Virus record (IMG/VR): IMGVR_UViG_2548876935_000008
From: a virus
Taxonomy: Duplodnaviria; Heunggongvirae; Uroviricota; Caudoviricetes
DNA length: 24,534 nt
Strand: one strand, 5' to 3'
Positions 12,893 to 24,534 of the stretch are shown one piece after another; the first letter of the stretch is position 1, and every line of letters starts with the position of its first letter. The notes beneath the pieces are model-generated. The model was not told where the DNA came from. It saw nothing but the letters and a program-made list of their open reading frames with translations, and searched no databases. A program made the translations under genes and the position numbers.

Positions 12893-13558
12893 TCAAAGCT
12901 CTGAGTCTACAGGCTCATGATAAAGGTTTACAGGGTAGTGTATAACCTCATAATTAAGTTGACTAACAGTGTGAGTATGTTGACTGTAAAAAACCAATGG
13001 GTTTCTCTTACAAGGAGTTATCGAGATAGACTTACAAGCATGAATTCTTGGAGCCGATTTATCTAAATGAGCCTTCCACTTAGTCATCATTTCATTACAT
13101 TTTTTATTACGCGTATATATAATTAACCCACCACTTGCACTGTCTACAGTACCAGTGCTATATCGCTCAGTGAGTTGTGCATACCCTTTAAATAAATAAC
13201 TATATGAACCAGTGTGTTTTTTGGCCTCGCCATGCCAAGTAAATCTATTCAACTTTATTGTTATATCACAATGACCTCGTTGATTATTTTCATGATATGC
13301 TTCAATTCCCATATCTTTATTTTTTATATTTGCCAGTAAAATTAAAGTAAGCTGATCTTCTGTTAAATCAAAATTCAATTTATTTGAATTTTCCTCAATT
13401 GCCTGTACAGCAGAATCAAGCTCAATTCTTACAAACTGTTTGAAGTTCTCATACGACTGGAGAGCAAACCTAACGCGAGTAATAGAAGCATTGATACGCT
13501 GAAGAAAAATATCATTATCAATTTCAGCTAAACTCATTGGTGCAGACATTTTTAACAT
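12893..13558 (-). CDS. Hypothetical protein, cassette gene 3 (221 aa); possible PD-(D/E)xK-like nuclease motif
   Basis: AT-rich ORF; ATG overlaps the upstream stop (TGATG). Contains ...GHCDITIKLNRFTWHGEAKKH..., a D-x12-E-A-K arrangement reminiscent of restriction-endonuclease-fold active sites (inference only). Confidence 0.55.
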   Translation of the reverse strand: MLKMSAPMSLAEIDNDIFLQRINASITRVRFALQSYENFKQFVRIELDSAVQAIEENSNKLNFDLTEDQLTLILLANIKNKDMGIEAYHENNQRGHCDITIKLNRFTWHGEAKKHTGSYSYLFKGYAQLTERYSTGTVDSASGGLIIYTRNKKCNEMMTKWKAHLDKSAPRIHACKSISITPCKRNPLVFYSQHTHTVSQLNYEVIHYPVNLYHEPVDSEL

Positions 13559-13992
13559 CAGACAATATCCTTTAATTTAGATTCATCTAATGTAAAAAAA
13601 GGAAAGACGAAGGACTTATAGTCATACATAATCTCCCCTGTAAATGGGTTTACTAAAGATTGATTAATTTCAGCCTCTATAACATCTTCTAACTCAAGCT
13701 CAATAGGATCATGAAAATCATCAATAAACCAATAATTGAGTTTTAAAAACTCAACCTTTGGACTACAAAGAATTTGTATAGCTGGGTACACAACCTGCTC
13801 ATATGCTTCAGGTTGTATACATCCTTTATAACCATTAACGATACTAAATAAATCTTTATAACTCAGAGCTATATTAGGCGATTTCTTTGCTCTCACACCA
13901 ATTTCATCATACAAATAGCAAGCTAGCGCCCCTATATCAGGGCGCTCTGCACATATTTCTTTGATGATCTGGGGCATATCACCATCCTTCAT
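13558..13992 (-). CDS. Hypothetical acidic protein, cassette gene 2 (about 144 aa)
   Basis: ORF 13558..14004 as tracked uses a TTG; the in-frame ATG at 13992 is preceded by GGAG at good spacing. AT-rich; no recognisable motif. Confidence 0.55.
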   Translation of the reverse strand: MKDGDMPQIIKEICAERPDIGALACYLYDEIGVRAKKSPNIALSYKDLFSIVNGYKGCIQPEAYEQVVYPAIQILCSPKVEFLKLNYWFIDDFHDPIELELEDVIEAEINQSLVNPFTGEIMYDYKSFVFPFFTLDESKLKDIV

Positions 13993-14004
13993 TGCTGACT
14001 CCAA

Positions 14005-15111
14005 TTATAATATCAGCTTTGTGAGGGTTTCGAAATCATCTTTGGATATACATTTGCTTAATATAGCATAATTGACAGGAGAGCACCCACTACCACCTAA
14101 ATGTCTGCGTAATGTTCCTGGAATGATAAGCTCTACACTATCCGCCAATTGCAATTTTGGATTATTCCTATCTACTCTAATTCCAATACGATATAAACCA
14201 ATATTACCTACAGCTTTAATGCCCTCTTTATTAAACAGATCATCACGCAAGTCTTTCTTAGCCACATTTTTCTTTTCCTTATGAGTGGTTCCCTCATAAG
14301 TTAAAAATGACAAATCGAACACCTTATAACTTAAACTTGAATATGGCATTACATTTTGCTTGAAAATTGGCTCAATTAATGGATAAAAATCCTTTTCCGA
14401 TGAATTAAATTGATAACCTGCGCAATTATATAACTCACGAATAAAATTCGTTTTCGCAAAAACGATATTATCACCAACAACATTACCATTAGTATCAATT
14501 AATACATGGATTTTATTTGAAGCTGAATCTAATATACACACATCAAAACACTGACGTTTTTCTTTTCTCTTCGCAATGATTTCATCAAACTGTTTGTATG
14601 CTGCTAACTTTGACGGAGGGACTTTCTCTCTTACAACCAGCTCCCTGATAGATGAAAATACCAAAATAGACTGAGTATTTTGCTTAGAGTAATTAACAAG
14701 CTCAAGTTGATTTTTAATAGCATGCTGTAATTGAACATCATCAACAATCGTTTCGACTAATGATGTTGGTTGCTTCATCATATTCCATTGGAGAGCATAT
14801 CTATCATCAAGTAATTTAATTACTTGACTATCTACAGACAAACTAAATATTGCTTTTTCACCATAAACAACCTGCCCAAAGACTAAATCATTTACACTTG
14901 CAATGATTTTGTCAAATTTTTGCCTATCTTTCTTTTTAAAATCAATGAGGCTTTCTAGTATTTTGTCGTTTGTTGCTTCACGCCCTCTACCTGTAGGTAG
15001 CCCTAAAGAAGCAATAATTGGTCTGGCGATATGCCACGTAAAACGTTCAGTTAAGGCTAAGATCGACTTTAACTCAAAGTCAGAAAGCACCACTGGGACA
15101 CCACTTGTCAT
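14005..15111 (-). CDS. Hypothetical protein, cassette gene 1 (368 aa)
   Basis: Tracked ORF begins at a GTG (15120); the in-frame ATG at 15111 is preceded by AGGTG 6 nt upstream. AT-rich; no Walker A/P-loop seen; no recognised family. Confidence 0.6.
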   Translation of the reverse strand: MTSGVPVVLSDFELKSILALTERFTWHIARPIIASLGLPTGRGREATNDKILESLIDFKKKDRQKFDKIIASVNDLVFGQVVYGEKAIFSLSVDSQVIKLLDDRYALQWNMMKQPTSLVETIVDDVQLQHAIKNQLELVNYSKQNTQSILVFSSIRELVVREKVPPSKLAAYKQFDEIIAKRKEKRQCFDVCILDSASNKIHVLIDTNGNVVGDNIVFAKTNFIRELYNCAGYQFNSSEKDFYPLIEPIFKQNVMPYSSLSYKVFDLSFLTYEGTTHKEKKNVAKKDLRDDLFNKEGIKAVGNIGLYRIGIRVDRNNPKLQLADSVELIIPGTLRRHLGGSGCSPVNYAILSKCISKDDFETLTKLIL

Positions 15112-15271
15112 AACATGCACCTAGTCAACCCAAAAGCAATTGAAAATCGCTCTTGTCTTAATTTTTTCCATCAATATCTAACAAATTACCTTAATGTTGA
15201 AAAAGTTTGCAAGCCATTTGCGTCTAAAAAGTGACTTGACTCAATGTGTTACAAAGCTTAGCGAGCGCGCG

Positions 15272-15290
15272 CTCGTATCCCCGCCACGCC
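15272..15290 (-). other. Candidate cos site (cohesive-end region) of the P2/186-like phage
   Basis: Minus strand reads GGCGTGGCGGGGATACGAG. From memory, P2 and 186 cohesive ends begin GGCGAGGCGGGGAAAGCAC and GGCGTGGCGGGGAAAGCAT. Orientation relative to Q is as in P2. Adjacent perfect palindrome GCGAGCGCGCGCTCG at 15261..15275. Confidence 0.45.
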
Positions 15291-15339
15291 TGCCCGCTTT
15301 ATGTAGTAGTTTTCATGCAGGTGCATGATCTACGCAAAA

Positions 15340-15359
15340 GCCCGCCAGTTCTGGCGGGC
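15340..15359 (-). terminator. Rho-independent terminator downstream of the membrane-protein operon
   Basis: GCCCGCCAG-tt-CTGGCGGGC perfect stem; on the minus strand it is followed by TTTTGCG, just past the stop of the 280-aa ORF. Confidence 0.55.
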
Positions 15360-15407
15360 CTTAGCAAAAACGATCCTCAAACGATCATGCGATCTCATGC
15401 AGCATAG

Positions 15408-16250
15408 TCATGCACGATCATTTGACTCAGCATCTGCTGCACGCTTGCTGCGCGAAGATGCACTTTTACTACCAATCTTTCGACAGTTCTTTCTATCCCT
15501 GGCTTCATTTTCTTTAAATTTGTTATATGTCTCAGTATCAAAAAACGAAATTGTTTCAACCTCATCTTTTGGTATGAGCACACGGAAATCTTCGATATTA
15601 AGCCGAGACATTCCACTTATCACACCACTATCAAGATAATGTTGGTGATAGTTAGTCGTGATACTAATCGTTAGATCATCTTTATCCCGATATCCGCTTA
15701 ACATCGGGAGAAGTTCAAGGTGTTCTGAAAGCCCGTTTTCTAACGCCGGACAAGTAACAAGACCAACATAGATTTTGCGAGACGACAGAGTTGCTATGAT
15801 CGGAAACTGTCTTGCAGACGCTTCCATGAGTAATGATTCGAAAGCGTTATTACCCACAGCTTTAGCTAAGGCATCCCAGCGACGATCTCCACGTGATGTG
15901 CGTAACTTATTTCCAAAACCTGAAATCGCAGCGAGAACAATTGAAATCATAACCCATGCTATCTGTTTGATTTCATTTATTCTTTGAAGTTTGTCTTTCG
16001 ATGAAGACAACATGCCATTAAAACTGTCAGGTGTTAGATTCAAGGCATTAGCCAGCCAACGAAACCCTCCGCTGACGTTCAAAATAAAGGTGAAAAAACC
16101 GCCAAGGAGAAAAAAAACGATACCCCAGGCAGCCACAAAAAAATAAGCGTCCCAGCCGTTGGAACGCTTATATCGGTATCTTGTTGAAAGTGATAGGTTT
16201 ACATAAATAAAACCACTAACCAAAATCACTGCTAAAAGTAATGTTGCCAT
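15408..16250 (-). CDS. Hypothetical membrane protein (280 aa; about three N-terminal transmembrane helices plus a cytoplasmic domain)
   Basis: Hydrophobic segments MATLLLAVILVSGFIYV, FFVAAWGIVFFLLGGFFTFIL and IAWVMISIVLAAISGF; soluble C-terminal half of unknown fold. ATG overlaps the stop of the upstream 71-aa gene (TAATG). AT-rich. Confidence 0.6.
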   Translation of the reverse strand: MATLLLAVILVSGFIYVNLSLSTRYRYKRSNGWDAYFFVAAWGIVFFLLGGFFTFILNVSGGFRWLANALNLTPDSFNGMLSSSKDKLQRINEIKQIAWVMISIVLAAISGFGNKLRTSRGDRRWDALAKAVGNNAFESLLMEASARQFPIIATLSSRKIYVGLVTCPALENGLSEHLELLPMLSGYRDKDDLTISITTNYHQHYLDSGVISGMSRLNIEDFRVLIPKDEVETISFFDTETYNKFKENEARDRKNCRKIGSKSASSRSKRAADAESNDRA

Positions 16251-22516: not shown

Positions 22517-23086
22517 ATGAATTTGGAGAAAGGCGGACGAGGCGCCATAGAGCGCATGGTAGAAGCTTATGGATTCAAGACTCGACAGGCGTTGTGCGAT
22601 CATTTAGGAATCTCTAAAAGTACACTCGCCACACGCTACATGCGTGACTCATTCCCAGCAGAATGGGTAATCCAGTGCGCCCTTGAAACAGGCACCTCGC
22701 TTAATTGGCTCACAACCGGGCATGGTTCAAAGCAAACTTCAGGTAATACAAATACTATGGAAGTTGCTAAATATGTATTATCTGATGGGGCCTTGTGTGA
22801 AGACGGTTTTTATATTTTCGATAGAGAATTTCTACCGTCGGCATTCAAGAATCTTTTTGTAATCACAGATAATAATTCTGAATTTATTTGTGATAAGGAA
22901 TTTGATGATATACGTGATGGTAAATGGGTAATAAGTATTGATGGCGAAATAACGATCCGTGACATTACTCGTTTACCCGGTGGAAGAATCTTCGTCGAGG
23001 GTGGAAACAGAGCCTTCGAATGTAAGATAGAAGACATTGAAATAATTGGTAAAATTATAAGTTTAACAGTCAAGTATGTTAAATAA
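22517..23086 (+). CDS. cI: CI-like immunity repressor (186 CI family)
   Basis: Tracked ORF starts at a GTG (22511); the ATG at 22517 (MNLEKGG...) is preceded by GGAG. About 189 aa, close to 186 CI in length; contains ...YGF......L..H..IS.S.L..RY.R.......V.QCALETG..L.WL.TG.G, resembling the 186 CI N-terminal DNA-binding domain. Confidence 0.7.
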   Translation: MNLEKGGRGAIERMVEAYGFKTRQALCDHLGISKSTLATRYMRDSFPAEWVIQCALETGTSLNWLTTGHGSKQTSGNTNTMEVAKYVLSDGALCEDGFYIFDREFLPSAFKNLFVITDNNSEFICDKEFDDIRDGKWVISIDGEITIRDITRLPGGRIFVEGGNRAFECKIEDIEIIGKIISLTVKYVK

Positions 23087-23101
23087 TACCGGGAGGAAAT
23101 T

Positions 23102-23293
23102 ATGCTTGGTAAGGTATTTTTTGTGGTTTTGTCATGTTCTTTGTTATTAAACCCACTAGCTACCTATGCTAGAAATTATCCCTGCTCAGGGAAAAAGGGA
23201 GGTGTTTCTCACTGTACCTCTGATGGCAAATTCGTTTGCAATGATGGAACTATTAGTAAATCCAAAAAAATCTGTACTAAAAACTCACGATAA
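23102..23293 (+). CDS. Small secreted cysteine-rich protein (63 aa), possible lysogenic-conversion/moron gene
   Basis: Predicted signal peptide ([23 protein letters not shown]), then a short mature peptide with four Cys ([31 protein letters not shown]). AT-rich; sits between cI and int. Confidence 0.45.
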
Positions 23294-23481
23294 CTTTTGC
23301 TTTTATATCTGCGCCTAAAATAAAAATGAGCCACAGGTTAACCGCAAAAGTTACATGATCACATAGCAAAAAGAATAGCCTACTTCATTATGGCTTCAGT
23401 GAGATGTATGGTCGCAGGATTTCATACATTGACACTGGTTATACATACAGTAAAAATGCTCTCTATTGGAGGGCATTTTTT

Positions 23482-24534
23482 ATGGCTGTACGAAAACTCA
23501 CCACAGGAAAATGGCTTTGCGAATGTTACCCCGCCGGACGTAGTGGGCGTCGTGTGCGTAAACAATTCGCCACCAAAGGCGAAGCACTGGCTTTTGAGCG
23601 TCACACGATGGAAGAAACCGAAGCAAAGCCCTGGCTAGGTGAATCAGTGGATCGTCGAACACTGAAAGACGTGGTTGAGCTATGGTTCAAACTACATGGT
23701 AAATCACTGACTGCTGGGCAGCATGTCTATGACAAATTGCTGCTGATGGTTGACGCTCTGGGCAATCCCCTTGCAACTGATCTAACCTCTAAAATGTTTG
23801 CCCACTATCGAGATAAACGCCTGACAGGTGAGATCTACTTCAGCGAGAAATGGAAGAAAGGAGCAAGCCCGGTCACCATTAACCTGGAGCAAAGCTATCT
23901 AAGTAGTGTTTTTAGCGAACTATCCCGCCTGGGCGAATGGTCGTATCCGAACCCACTGGAGAACATGCGAAAATTCACCATCGCAGAAAAAGAGATGGCA
24001 TGGCTTACCCATGAGCAGATTGTTGAATTACTGGCTGATTGCAAACGTCAGGACCCAATTCTGGCACTGGTAGTTAAGATATGCTTAAGCACAGGCGCAC
24101 GCTGGCGAGAAGCCGTAAATCTTACTCGTTCACAGGTGACCAAATACCGAATTACCTTTGTAAGAACGAAGGGGAAGAAAAACAGAAGCATCCCTATCAG
24201 TAAAGAGCTTTACGAAGAGATCATGGCGCTTGATGGGTTCAATTTCTTCACAGACTGCTATTTTCAATTTTTATCCGTGATGGAAAAAACGTCTATCGTG
24301 CTCCCTCGCGGTCAACTCACACACGTTCTGCGCCATACGTTTGCGGCGCACTTCATGATGTCGGGTGGAAACATTCTGGCCTTACAAAAAATTCTCGGAC
24401 ACCACGATATAAAAATGACTATGCGTTACGCACATCTGGCACCGGATCATCTGGAAACGGCGCTCCGTTTCAATCCTCTGGCAACGCTGCCAAGTGGCGA
24501 CAAAGTGGCGGCAGCGGTTGGCATTACCCCGTAA
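23482..24534 (+). CDS. int: Tyrosine integrase (P2/186 integrase family)
   Basis: Tracked ORF starts at 23404; start chosen at ATG 23482 (MAVRKLTTGKWLCECYPAGRSGRRVRKQFATKGEALAFERH...), preceded by GGAGGG. C-terminal catalytic region has R...HxLRHT...H..Y (LTHVLRHTFAAHF...MRYAHL). Stop codon is the last three bases of the window. Confidence 0.85.
   Translation: MAVRKLTTGKWLCECYPAGRSGRRVRKQFATKGEALAFERHTMEETEAKPWLGESVDRRTLKDVVELWFKLHGKSLTAGQHVYDKLLLMVDALGNPLATDLTSKMFAHYRDKRLTGEIYFSEKWKKGASPVTINLEQSYLSSVFSELSRLGEWSYPNPLENMRKFTIAEKEMAWLTHEQIVELLADCKRQDPILALVVKICLSTGARWREAVNLTRSQVTKYRITFVRTKGKKNRSIPISKELYEEIMALDGFNFFTDCYFQFLSVMEKTSIVLPRGQLTHVLRHTFAAHFMMSGGNILALQKILGHHDIKMTMRYAHLAPDHLETALRFNPLATLPSGDKVAAAVGITP

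Follow-up and report, generated by a model that had tools for sequence, protein, structure and literature searches.

Gene organization between cI and int

The window, by which we mean the whole stretch of 24,534 nt that was analyzed (IMG/VR record IMGVR_UViG_2548876935_000008), stems from a 186-like prophage of the P2 group. It harbors genes for a 186-type CI, an Apl/Cox-like protein, CII (CP76), Fil, a Dam methylase and gpA, together with P2 morphogenesis genes. All features described below reside on the plus strand. The repressor gene cI (22517..23086, stop codon at 23084-23086) was identified by the domains Phage_CI_repr (PF07022, E 2.8e-33) and Phage_CI_C (PF16452, E 2.7e-27), and is listed in RefSeq as a gene of 570 nt encoding 'phage repressor protein CI'. 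The gene int (23482..24534) codes for a tyrosine integrase of 350 aa (PF24624, PF00589), the 'phage integrase' WP_000290937.1 of RefSeq, and is followed by the host gene rcdA at the end of the prophage.

The interval between these genes accommodates an open reading frame (ORF) of 63 codons plus stop (23102..23293), which was taken from the list of ORFs. Its ATG start codon is separated from the cI stop codon by 15 nt and is preceded at a distance of 5 nt by the sequence GGAGG (23092..23096), which reads as a Shine-Dalgarno (SD) sequence. A scan of the region between cI and the ORF did not disclose any terminator-like site, and cI presumably precedes the ORF within one transcription unit. Behind the ORF follow a spacer (23294..23428) and a short int-proximal module (23429..23481). 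The GC content is 0.355 at positions 23100-23299, which belong to a low-GC block (~0.35) extending roughly from 22700 to 23400 and comprising the C-terminal half of cI, the ORF and the downstream spacer, while the flanks range from 0.47 to 0.53. The sequence-only reading of this DNA had described an AT-rich 63-aa ORF situated between cI and int, and all three of these properties were recovered.

Selection and prevalence

To compare pN/pS values, two E. coli alleles with a pS of ~0.25 were used. The first (L018) differed from the ORF by 11 synonymous and two non-synonymous changes (pN/pS 0.054), the second (L020) by 10 synonymous and three non-synonymous changes (pN/pS 0.09). Since the exchanges N17S, A20T and R24K all affect the leader of the protein or its end, the mature peptide is identical in these alleles. 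The ORF is evidently under purifying selection. Together with the matches to a family HMM and to phrog_6000 described below, the low pN/pS values demonstrate that it is more than a chance reading frame, namely a real and selectively maintained gene downstream of cI.

The region containing the ORF was found, at a coverage of at least 80%, in 590 out of 5,426 complete E. coli genomes (~11%), and the same type of cI in 648 of them. E. coli B (ATCC 11303) harbors the ORF region, and BL21(DE3) was matched by the cI query. The intact 63-aa form dominated by far, with a cluster of 355 members representing at least 1000 contigs. Disrupted alleles were also detected. A run of seven A within the ORF (23264..23270) is the site of a -1 frameshift, which removes Cys58 and leads to a product of 71 aa in the allele of NCTC9966 (L019). 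A frameshift cluster member of the same length (P0066) was recorded on 14 contigs, and several truncated alleles were seen as singletons. Some of the disrupted alleles may be homopolymer sequencing errors.

Predicted export and properties of the mature peptide

The N-terminus of the deduced protein has the features of a signal peptide (residues 1-23, 23102..23170). Lys4 is followed by a hydrophobic core (residues 5-16) with a mean Kyte-Doolittle value of up to 2.7 over nine residues, and the leader ends with the cleavage motif T-Y-A in front of Arg24. In an alignment of 23 family members the Ala at position -1 was invariant while the rest of the leader varied freely, and the allelic changes mentioned above follow the same pattern. 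Taken together, the leader features and the invariant Ala fit cleavage by signal peptidase I after Ala23. The signal peptide postulated by the sequence-only reading is hence a sound prediction, in which sequence features and conservation within the family agree, and Sec export of the protein appears probable.

The mature domain (23171..23290), which is supported by family alignments, by its probable relationship to Dis2 (see below) and by an AF2 model, comprises 40 aa with a mass of 4.3 kDa, a pI of 9.7 and a net charge of +6.8. It agrees with the Cys-rich peptide of about 40 residues that had been proposed. The four Cys residues C28, C38, C46 and C58 are invariant in the family and are likely to form disulfides in the periplasm. 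The leader contains a fifth Cys residue (C12), for which no conservation was seen. The AF2 model of the mature domain (pLDDT 80) revealed a core formed by a beta-hairpin.

The protein belongs to the YdcA family

The protein matched the NCBIfam model NF007463 over its full length (residues 5-63 against positions 1-58 of 58) with 114.6 bits at a curated cut-off of 93, and phrog_6000 with an E value of 3e-34. An identical protein exists in RefSeq (WP_001513672.1, 'YdcA family protein'), and the Pfam family PF27300 ("YdcA") has been assigned to homologues including an identical database entry (P0001). Our own Pfam search of the ORF yielded only a spurious sub-threshold match to GULLO2, because PF27300 is newer than the copy of Pfam that was searched.

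Like the members of this family, the protein consists of a signal peptide and a single domain of ~35 aa with four invariant Cys residues and the pattern PCSG.KGG...C...F.C.DG..S.SK..C. Invariant columns of the mature part are P27, C28, S29, K32, G33, G34, C38, F44, C46, D48, G49, S52, S54, K55 and C58. In a range of hosts that reaches from Enterobacterales to Moraxella and Herbaspirillum, 15 or 16 mature columns did not vary. When 1.84 billion proteins were searched exhaustively with an HMM of the mature domain, only 331 representatives at 50% identity emerged. The YdcA family is small yet widely scattered.

The equivalog model of ydcA itself (NF007462) reached only 68.5 bits, its cut-off being 118, and the phage gene is therefore a paralogue of ydcA rather than an orthologue. 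Protein and family have already been catalogued by RefSeq, NCBIfam, Pfam and PHROGs, and the gene is neither novel nor phage-specific. We regard it as an ordinary cargo gene of prophages, encoding a member of a functionally uncharacterized family. Our literature searches retrieved nothing on the function of the YdcA family (PF27300, PRK10040, b1419), and no experiment defining a ligand or mechanism for any stand-alone YdcA protein was found there. Regarding the host gene, induction of ydcA at pH 5 under YdcI has been reported, and a ydcA deletion sensitized E. coli W to 300 mM 3-hydroxypropionate, a phenotype fully suppressed by deletion of yieP (PMC7642389).

Some names found in databases were rejected. 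The UniRef name 'Conjugal transfer protein' is an unsupported label, to which only the link to Dis2 and the neighborhood of one copy, adjacent to a traD-like gene of a small Mob plasmid, bear any relation. Genes named 'ydcA' in Bacillus, in the gonococcal island of Neisseria and on plasmid pS88 are unrelated.

The gene is fixed to cI within a variable cargo slot

Comparison of related prophages disclosed a slot for variable cargo between cI and int in the 186-like lineage. The identical Int protein (WP_000290937.1) occurs elsewhere with a different CI of 314 aa and a protein of 324 aa without assigned function in the interval. Another prophage at the same site, which encodes a closely related Int, carries a gene without assigned function plus genes for an N-acetyltransferase and an ASCH-domain protein. 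In isolated 186-like phages the interval contains a gene for an SMC-like ATPase of 558 aa or for an uncharacterized protein of 349 aa. The nearest isolated phages possess a CI that is at most 56% identical, along with other cargo, and none of 50,697 phage records was matched in a megablast search with the cI-ORF-int region.

Unlike the cargo that is swapped, the ydcA-like gene stays directly downstream of cI across genera. An E. coli allele with 67% identity (P0013) is arranged in the order cI, ydcA-like gene, KAP NTPase gene, int, and in Hafnia the ydcA-like gene is followed by a gene for 347 aa and int. The Haemophilus phages HP2 and S2 contain an intact but unannotated family member of 60 aa (L001 2944-3126). 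In HP2 its ATG overlaps the cI stop codon (TAATG), an arrangement by which the gene is translationally coupled to cI; orf1(S) and int are located downstream. Searches for homologues and their genomic context hence converged on the YdcA family (NF007463, PF27300) and on the adjacency to cI in E. coli, Hafnia and HP2.

It had also been claimed that P2-like prophages typically carry conversion genes at this position. For the 186-like lineage the slot exists, and a hotspot between cI and int has been described for K139-like P2-related phages (PMC9122126; Rousset et al. 2022). For P2 proper the claim does not apply, as cargo is found mainly at gpA-gpQ and in the tail region rather than at C-int. 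The principal cargo hotspot of P2 is gpA-gpQ, the one between int and the primase gene being a minor site (PMC9122126, PMC13586616). None of the defense models of PADLOC-DB 2.0 matched the protein at E ≤ 0.001.

A conserved module precedes int

The last ~55 nt in front of int were retained whatever the cargo, as seen in an alignment across cargo types, and in megablast searches prophages with other cargo matched only the int-proximal piece. This module (23429..23481) contains the promoter-like sequence TTGACA-17-AAAAAT, whose -10 element reads TAAAAT in Hafnia, and a terminator-like hairpin (23452-23480). The hairpin is followed by a U6 tract up to the ATG of int, and the SD sequence of int lies in its 3' arm. 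Compensatory changes were found in the stem (GCTCTC/GAGGGC, GTCCTC/GAGGAC and GCCCTC/GAGGGC), and four versions of the hairpin gave fold z-scores between -3.9 and -6.2 against shuffled sequences. Individual folds were used since differences in loop length misalign the arms of the hairpin, for which reason column-wise counting of pairs was dropped.

Transcripts that come from cI and traverse the ydcA-like gene would for the most part stop at this hairpin, or would be untranslatable for int. The sequence-only reading had placed the ORF in a common cI-int transcript. Its position immediately downstream of cI conforms to this proposal as far as the upstream part is concerned, but the terminator-like hairpin argues against one plain transcript including int. 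In view of this conserved element, resembling an intrinsic terminator, the lysogenic unit is better described as cI-ydcA-like.

The spacer between the ORF and the module (23294..23428) is able to form a long imperfect hairpin, and a fold z-score of -4.78 was determined for the region 23285-23500. The spacer is homologous only among alleles carrying the ORF and travels with the ydcA-like gene. An Rfam search of the spacer revealed no family and only a chance sub-threshold match to a miRNA.

The YdcA domain is probably related to Dis2 of Legionella

A search of PDB sequences with phmmer identified chain AN of the structures 7MUC and 7MUD, the protein Dis2, with an E value of 3.2e-5 (2e-4 with the family profile). 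It was the only PDB relative detected by sequence. An alignment of the YdcA domain with Dis2 by hhalign gave a probability of 92% (E 5.6e-7), and in Foldseek 7muc_AN ranked first among 350,542 PDB chains with a probability of 0.95. One Dis2-like protein carries PF27300. Both lobes of Dis2 can be aligned with the YdcA domain through the pattern C-S-K-GG-x-x-C...G-x-x-VCN(D)G-x-x-S, while the conserved lysines of YdcA are absent from Dis2. The YdcA domain is thus likely homologous to each lobe of Dis2.

[quoted passage not shown] It resides in the outer-membrane cap, where it adjoins the outer membrane and contacts the lipoproteins DotC, DotD and DotK, and it consists of two similar lobes with five disulfides. 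The system assembles without Dis2, whose loss causes only subtle effects on translocation, and Dis2 has been called Legionella-specific and devoid of structural relatives (PMC8486379, PMC12716638). The prophage does not harbor any T4SS genes, and its protein does not have the architecture of Dis2.

YdcA domains fused to nucleases and in other contexts

Two proteins combine a YdcA domain, located behind a signal peptide, with an SNase domain (E 5e-24 and 1e-17), and one of these fusions is encoded at a cargo position of another P2-like phage. Further fusions, likewise behind a signal peptide, involve a PLD-type nuclease domain (PLDc_2, E 5e-19), a partial Endonuclease_NS domain (E 1.6e-7) and the C-terminal region of VasL (E 4e-18). 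The nuclease fusions amount to a handful among the 331 family representatives. Tandem repeats of two or three YdcA domains were also found.

As to stand-alone genes, one copy is located in a T6SS cluster downstream of tssJ-tssE, and others belong to three-gene operons on mobilizable plasmids of 4-5 kb or reside at ordinary chromosomal loci. In siphophages of Moraxella and Acinetobacter the family gene is part of the tail-gene region instead of the lysogeny module. Expression in the lysogen is therefore not universal in the family.

Possible role of the protein

The ORF almost certainly encodes a real YdcA-family protein that is produced together with CI and, according to our prediction, exported. 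The ydcA-like gene would be translated from its own strong ribosome binding site, 15 nt downstream of the cI stop codon, so that its product should be made in the lysogen along with the repressor. After Sec export and cleavage behind Ala23, oxidation of the four invariant Cys residues would give rise to a periplasmic miniprotein of 40 residues with two disulfides and a charge of about +7. The most likely role of such a protein is that of a small periplasmic module for binding or anchoring, to which we assign a probability of about 0.5. This reading is suggested by the location of Dis2 together with the nuclease fusions and the copy in the T6SS cluster.

Ligand and phenotype are a matter of speculation, and so are the roles in exclusion, envelope modification or host interaction that the sequence-only reading had put forward. 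The target of the module may be a conserved, probably anionic component that the outer membrane exposes to the periplasm or, alternatively, a nucleic acid crossing the periplasm. That the mature peptide is nearly invariant across distant hosts favors a universal ligand and disfavors a phage-specific target involved in an arms race. In the lysogen, a YdcA-type function that the host encodes as well would be constitutively supplied in an additional dose, and the benefit may be a protection at the level of the envelope, either against incoming DNA or phages or against acid and organic-acid stress. Any specific phenotype named at this stage is doubtful.

One of these phenotypes would turn the protein into a dedicated superinfection exclusion factor, which, like Glo of phage K139 or Sim of P1, keeps the DNA of related phages from entering once they have adsorbed. 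Position and operon logic are those of K139 glo (PMC4870250), the cI-int interval serves as a slot for cargo and defense genes (PMC9122126), and a fusion of YdcA with SNase is found among the cargo of another P2-like phage. On the other hand, the protein lacks similarity to Glo (E 0.17) and has no PADLOC match. For an exclusion factor one would moreover expect rapid diversification, instead of which the mature peptide is almost invariant among E. coli, Moraxella and Herbaspirillum and the family includes a core chromosomal gene. We regard a dedicated exclusion factor as rather unlikely.

The gene could also act as a conversion gene for host fitness, the raised and deregulated dose of YdcA counteracting acid or organic-acid stress and favoring lysogens in the gut. 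The acid induction of the core ydcA gene and the sensitivity of the deletion mutant to 3-hydroxypropionate (PMC7642389) are in line with this idea, as are the 57% identity to YdcA, the strong purifying selection and the occurrence in ~11% of the complete E. coli genomes. Yet the phenotype originates from a single study, comes without a mechanism and is abolished by the yieP deletion (PMC7642389), and a role in acid stress leaves the ties of the family to secretion machines, nucleases and small plasmids unexplained. In our opinion such a function is improbable, too.

That the gene is a neutral hitch-hiker or a decaying remnant, functionless in the lysogen and merely accompanying the cI immunity module, is very unlikely. 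The frameshifted and truncated alleles (L019 and P0066 at the A7 run, and the singletons) and the lack of the gene in related prophages with the same integrase could be interpreted in this way, but pN/pS values of 0.05-0.09, an invariant mature peptide and the dominance of the intact form speak against decay, and the adjacency to cI is kept across genera up to the coupling in HP2.

Just as little can be said for a lipoprotein anchored by a lipid at Cys12. The sequence V-L-S-C within 'VVLSC' bears a loose resemblance to a lipobox, and a source gives the name 'Lipoprotein' to one member of the family (P0047). VLSC (residues 9-12) does not match the lipobox pattern [LVI][ASTVI][GAS]C, since Leu at position -2 is atypical. 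Furthermore, Cys12 follows a hydrophobic stretch of only seven residues, a very short h-region, and is missing in most members including the core YdcA, whereas the site of the Ala-X-Ala type in front of the mature domain is invariant. A periplasmic protease inhibitor akin to the small disulfide-rich Pin-II type is very improbable, as the potato type II proteinase inhibitors in the PDB that hint at it were matched without significance (E 0.23-1.8; E 0.45 with the profile).

Returning to the periplasmic binding or anchoring module, we may sketch its most far-reaching form, though we think that it is quite unlikely to be true. Here, the unit shared by YdcA and Dis2 would be a universal binder of polyanions (DNA or lipid phosphate) close to the outer membrane, and the stand-alone phage copy would exclude incoming phage or plasmid DNA. 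Mobile elements would have deployed the unit repeatedly, in fusions with periplasmic nucleases, within secretion machines (T4SS, T6SS) and, in prophages, as a gene standing alone, which is an equally uncertain proposition. If this reading proved correct, very small exclusion factors without enzymatic activity would emerge as a new class, and the core gene ydcA would at the same time receive a function.

As an object the finding is not new, since protein and family had already been catalogued. In our literature searches we did not encounter descriptions of the coupling to cI from 186-like prophages to Haemophilus HP2, of Dis2 as a member of the YdcA family, or of the recurrent YdcA-nuclease fusions. 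These three points make the family a reasonable small experimental target rather than a surprising discovery. The family links a core gene of E. coli with many mobile elements, and a conserved copy that is probably co-expressed with cI and occurs in ~11% of the complete genomes of E. coli, including the B/BL21 lineage, offers a handle on the function of YdcA. The likely homology makes a supposedly Legionella-specific Dot/Icm component a member of a widespread domain family, in which Dis2 alone provides an experimental structure as a template for YdcA proteins. Finally, the nuclease fusions and the adjacency to cI, which is fixed in Enterobacterales as well as in Haemophilus, point to a testable role of a 4-kDa protein at the envelope or in connection with DNA.

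Comparison with known systems

With the YdcA family (PF27300; NF007462, NF007463 and NF007464; phrog_6000) the phage protein shares the sequence PCSGxKGG(V/I)SHC...GKFVCNDG(T/S)IS.SKK.C and its four invariant Cys residues. The core protein YdcA of E. coli K-12 (b1419) comprises 57 aa and is 57% identical to the phage protein, with a higher value in the mature part. Its gene is located between cybB and hokB/trg, whereas the phage copy is cargo between cI and int.

What the locus has in common with the cargo and defense hotspots of P2-like phages is the exchange of alternative cargo between cI and int, i.e. genes for a KAP NTPase, an SMC-like ATPase, an N-acetyltransferase with an ASCH-domain protein, and proteins without assigned function. 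It differs from them by the ydcA-like gene, which is fixed to cI and does not correspond to a known defense model.

Dis2 and the phage protein have a disulfide-rich lobe that is likely homologous, and both are exported, periplasmic and pinned by disulfides, which for the phage protein is a prediction. Dis2 possesses two lobes, five disulfides and additional Cys residues and is a stoichiometric part of the T4BSS, while the phage protein consists of one basic domain that has four Cys residues.

The exclusion protein Glo of K139, a P2/HP1-related phage of Vibrio cholerae, is encoded in the lysogenic PL operon, which has the order PL-cI-orf2-glo-int (PMC4870250, PMC4956436), and is annotated in GenBank as 'periplasmic protein; involved in phage exclusion'. 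With 137 aa and no detectable similarity to the phage protein (BLASTP E 0.17, 7/30 identities), it is a positional analogue and not a relative of the family. Both genes belong to a lysogenic operon and occupy a position between cI and int, and both products are periplasmic, the one studied here by prediction. Judged by this resemblance, Glo is the closest analogue of the YdcA-like protein in operon position and likely in logic.

A possible mosaic module and frameshift alleles of the ydcA-like gene

The ydcA-like gene (23102-23293, + strand) lies within a block of low GC content (approximately 35%, 22700-23400), which begins within the C-terminal domain of cI and extends across the gene and its spacer. 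This extent suggests that the C-terminal half of cI and the ydcA-like gene form a single mosaic module that was jointly acquired or exchanged. In NCTC9966 and at least 14 other contigs, a -1 frameshift within an A7 run of the ORF (23264-23270) resulted in 71-aa products lacking Cys58, the last of the four invariant cysteines. Such alleles may represent genuine inactivation or slippage; alternatively, they may be artefacts of sequencing through the homopolymer.

Cargo genes in the cI-int slot and at gpQ-gpA

Among related 186-like prophages the cargo residing between cI and int differed. In these prophages, the slot was occupied by genes for a 324-aa unknown protein (L003/L004, 1503-2505), an N-acetyltransferase together with an ASCH-domain protein (L005, 1-2482), a KAP NTPase (L012, 4198-5529), a 558-aa SMC-like ATPase (L029, 3091-4767), and further unknown proteins of 347 aa (L016, 4247-5290) and 349 aa (L030, 3467-4516). 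The slot may be a useful site for defence-gene hunting. Haemophilus phages HP2 (L001, 2944-3126; NC_003315.1, complement) and S2 contain an intact, unannotated ORF of 60 aa that belongs to the YdcA family. Its start codon shares bases with the stop codon of cI (TAATG), and orf1(S) and int follow downstream.

In P2 phages the gpQ-gpA interval is the classic hotspot for defence genes. In this prophage it harbours, on the - strand (12893-16250), a row of four ORFs encoding 221, 148, 371 and 280 aa. None of them gave a match in Pfam or PADLOC, and the set is a candidate for an uncharacterised accessory or defence system.

A putative switch upstream of int

A module at 23429-23484 was conserved together with int across differing upstream cargo. 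It comprises a promoter-like site, TTGACA-17-AAAAAT, followed by a hairpin resembling an intrinsic terminator, whose U6 tract runs up to the int ATG (23482) and whose 3′ arm holds the int Shine-Dalgarno sequence. Between the versions from E. coli and Hafnia, compensatory changes preserve this hairpin. RNA initiated at the promoter-like element would not include the 5′ arm, so that the Shine-Dalgarno sequence would stay accessible, while read-through from cI would either terminate at the hairpin or yield untranslatable int. The module could serve as a switch for int expression.

Domain fusions and probable relationship to Dis2

The YdcA domain was found fused to nucleases (SNase, PLD-type and, partially, Endonuclease_NS) and to the C-terminal region of VasL. 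One YdcA-SNase fusion is cargo of another P2-like phage, and in a plasmid T6SS cluster a family copy directly follows tssJ-tssE (fusions and contexts: P0140, P0200, P0209, P0215, P0104; L011, 4926-5327; L027, 4001-4669). In two-domain members of approximately 100-150 aa (P0056-P0062, P0109, P0145, P0199), the YdcA domain precedes another short module rich in Cys, C.C....(Y/L)CTGPRGG.YC...G.K.Y, whose similarity to the PBCV basic adaptor domain is only weak and falls below threshold (E 0.006).

Dis2 (Lpg0823), a two-lobed subunit of the Legionella Dot/Icm secretion system, has been described as Legionella-specific and without structural relatives. As the YdcA motif is present in both of its lobes (PDB 7MUC/7MUD, chain AN) and PF27300 is assigned to a Dis2-like protein (P0228, P0229), Dis2 looks like a duplication of the YdcA domain.
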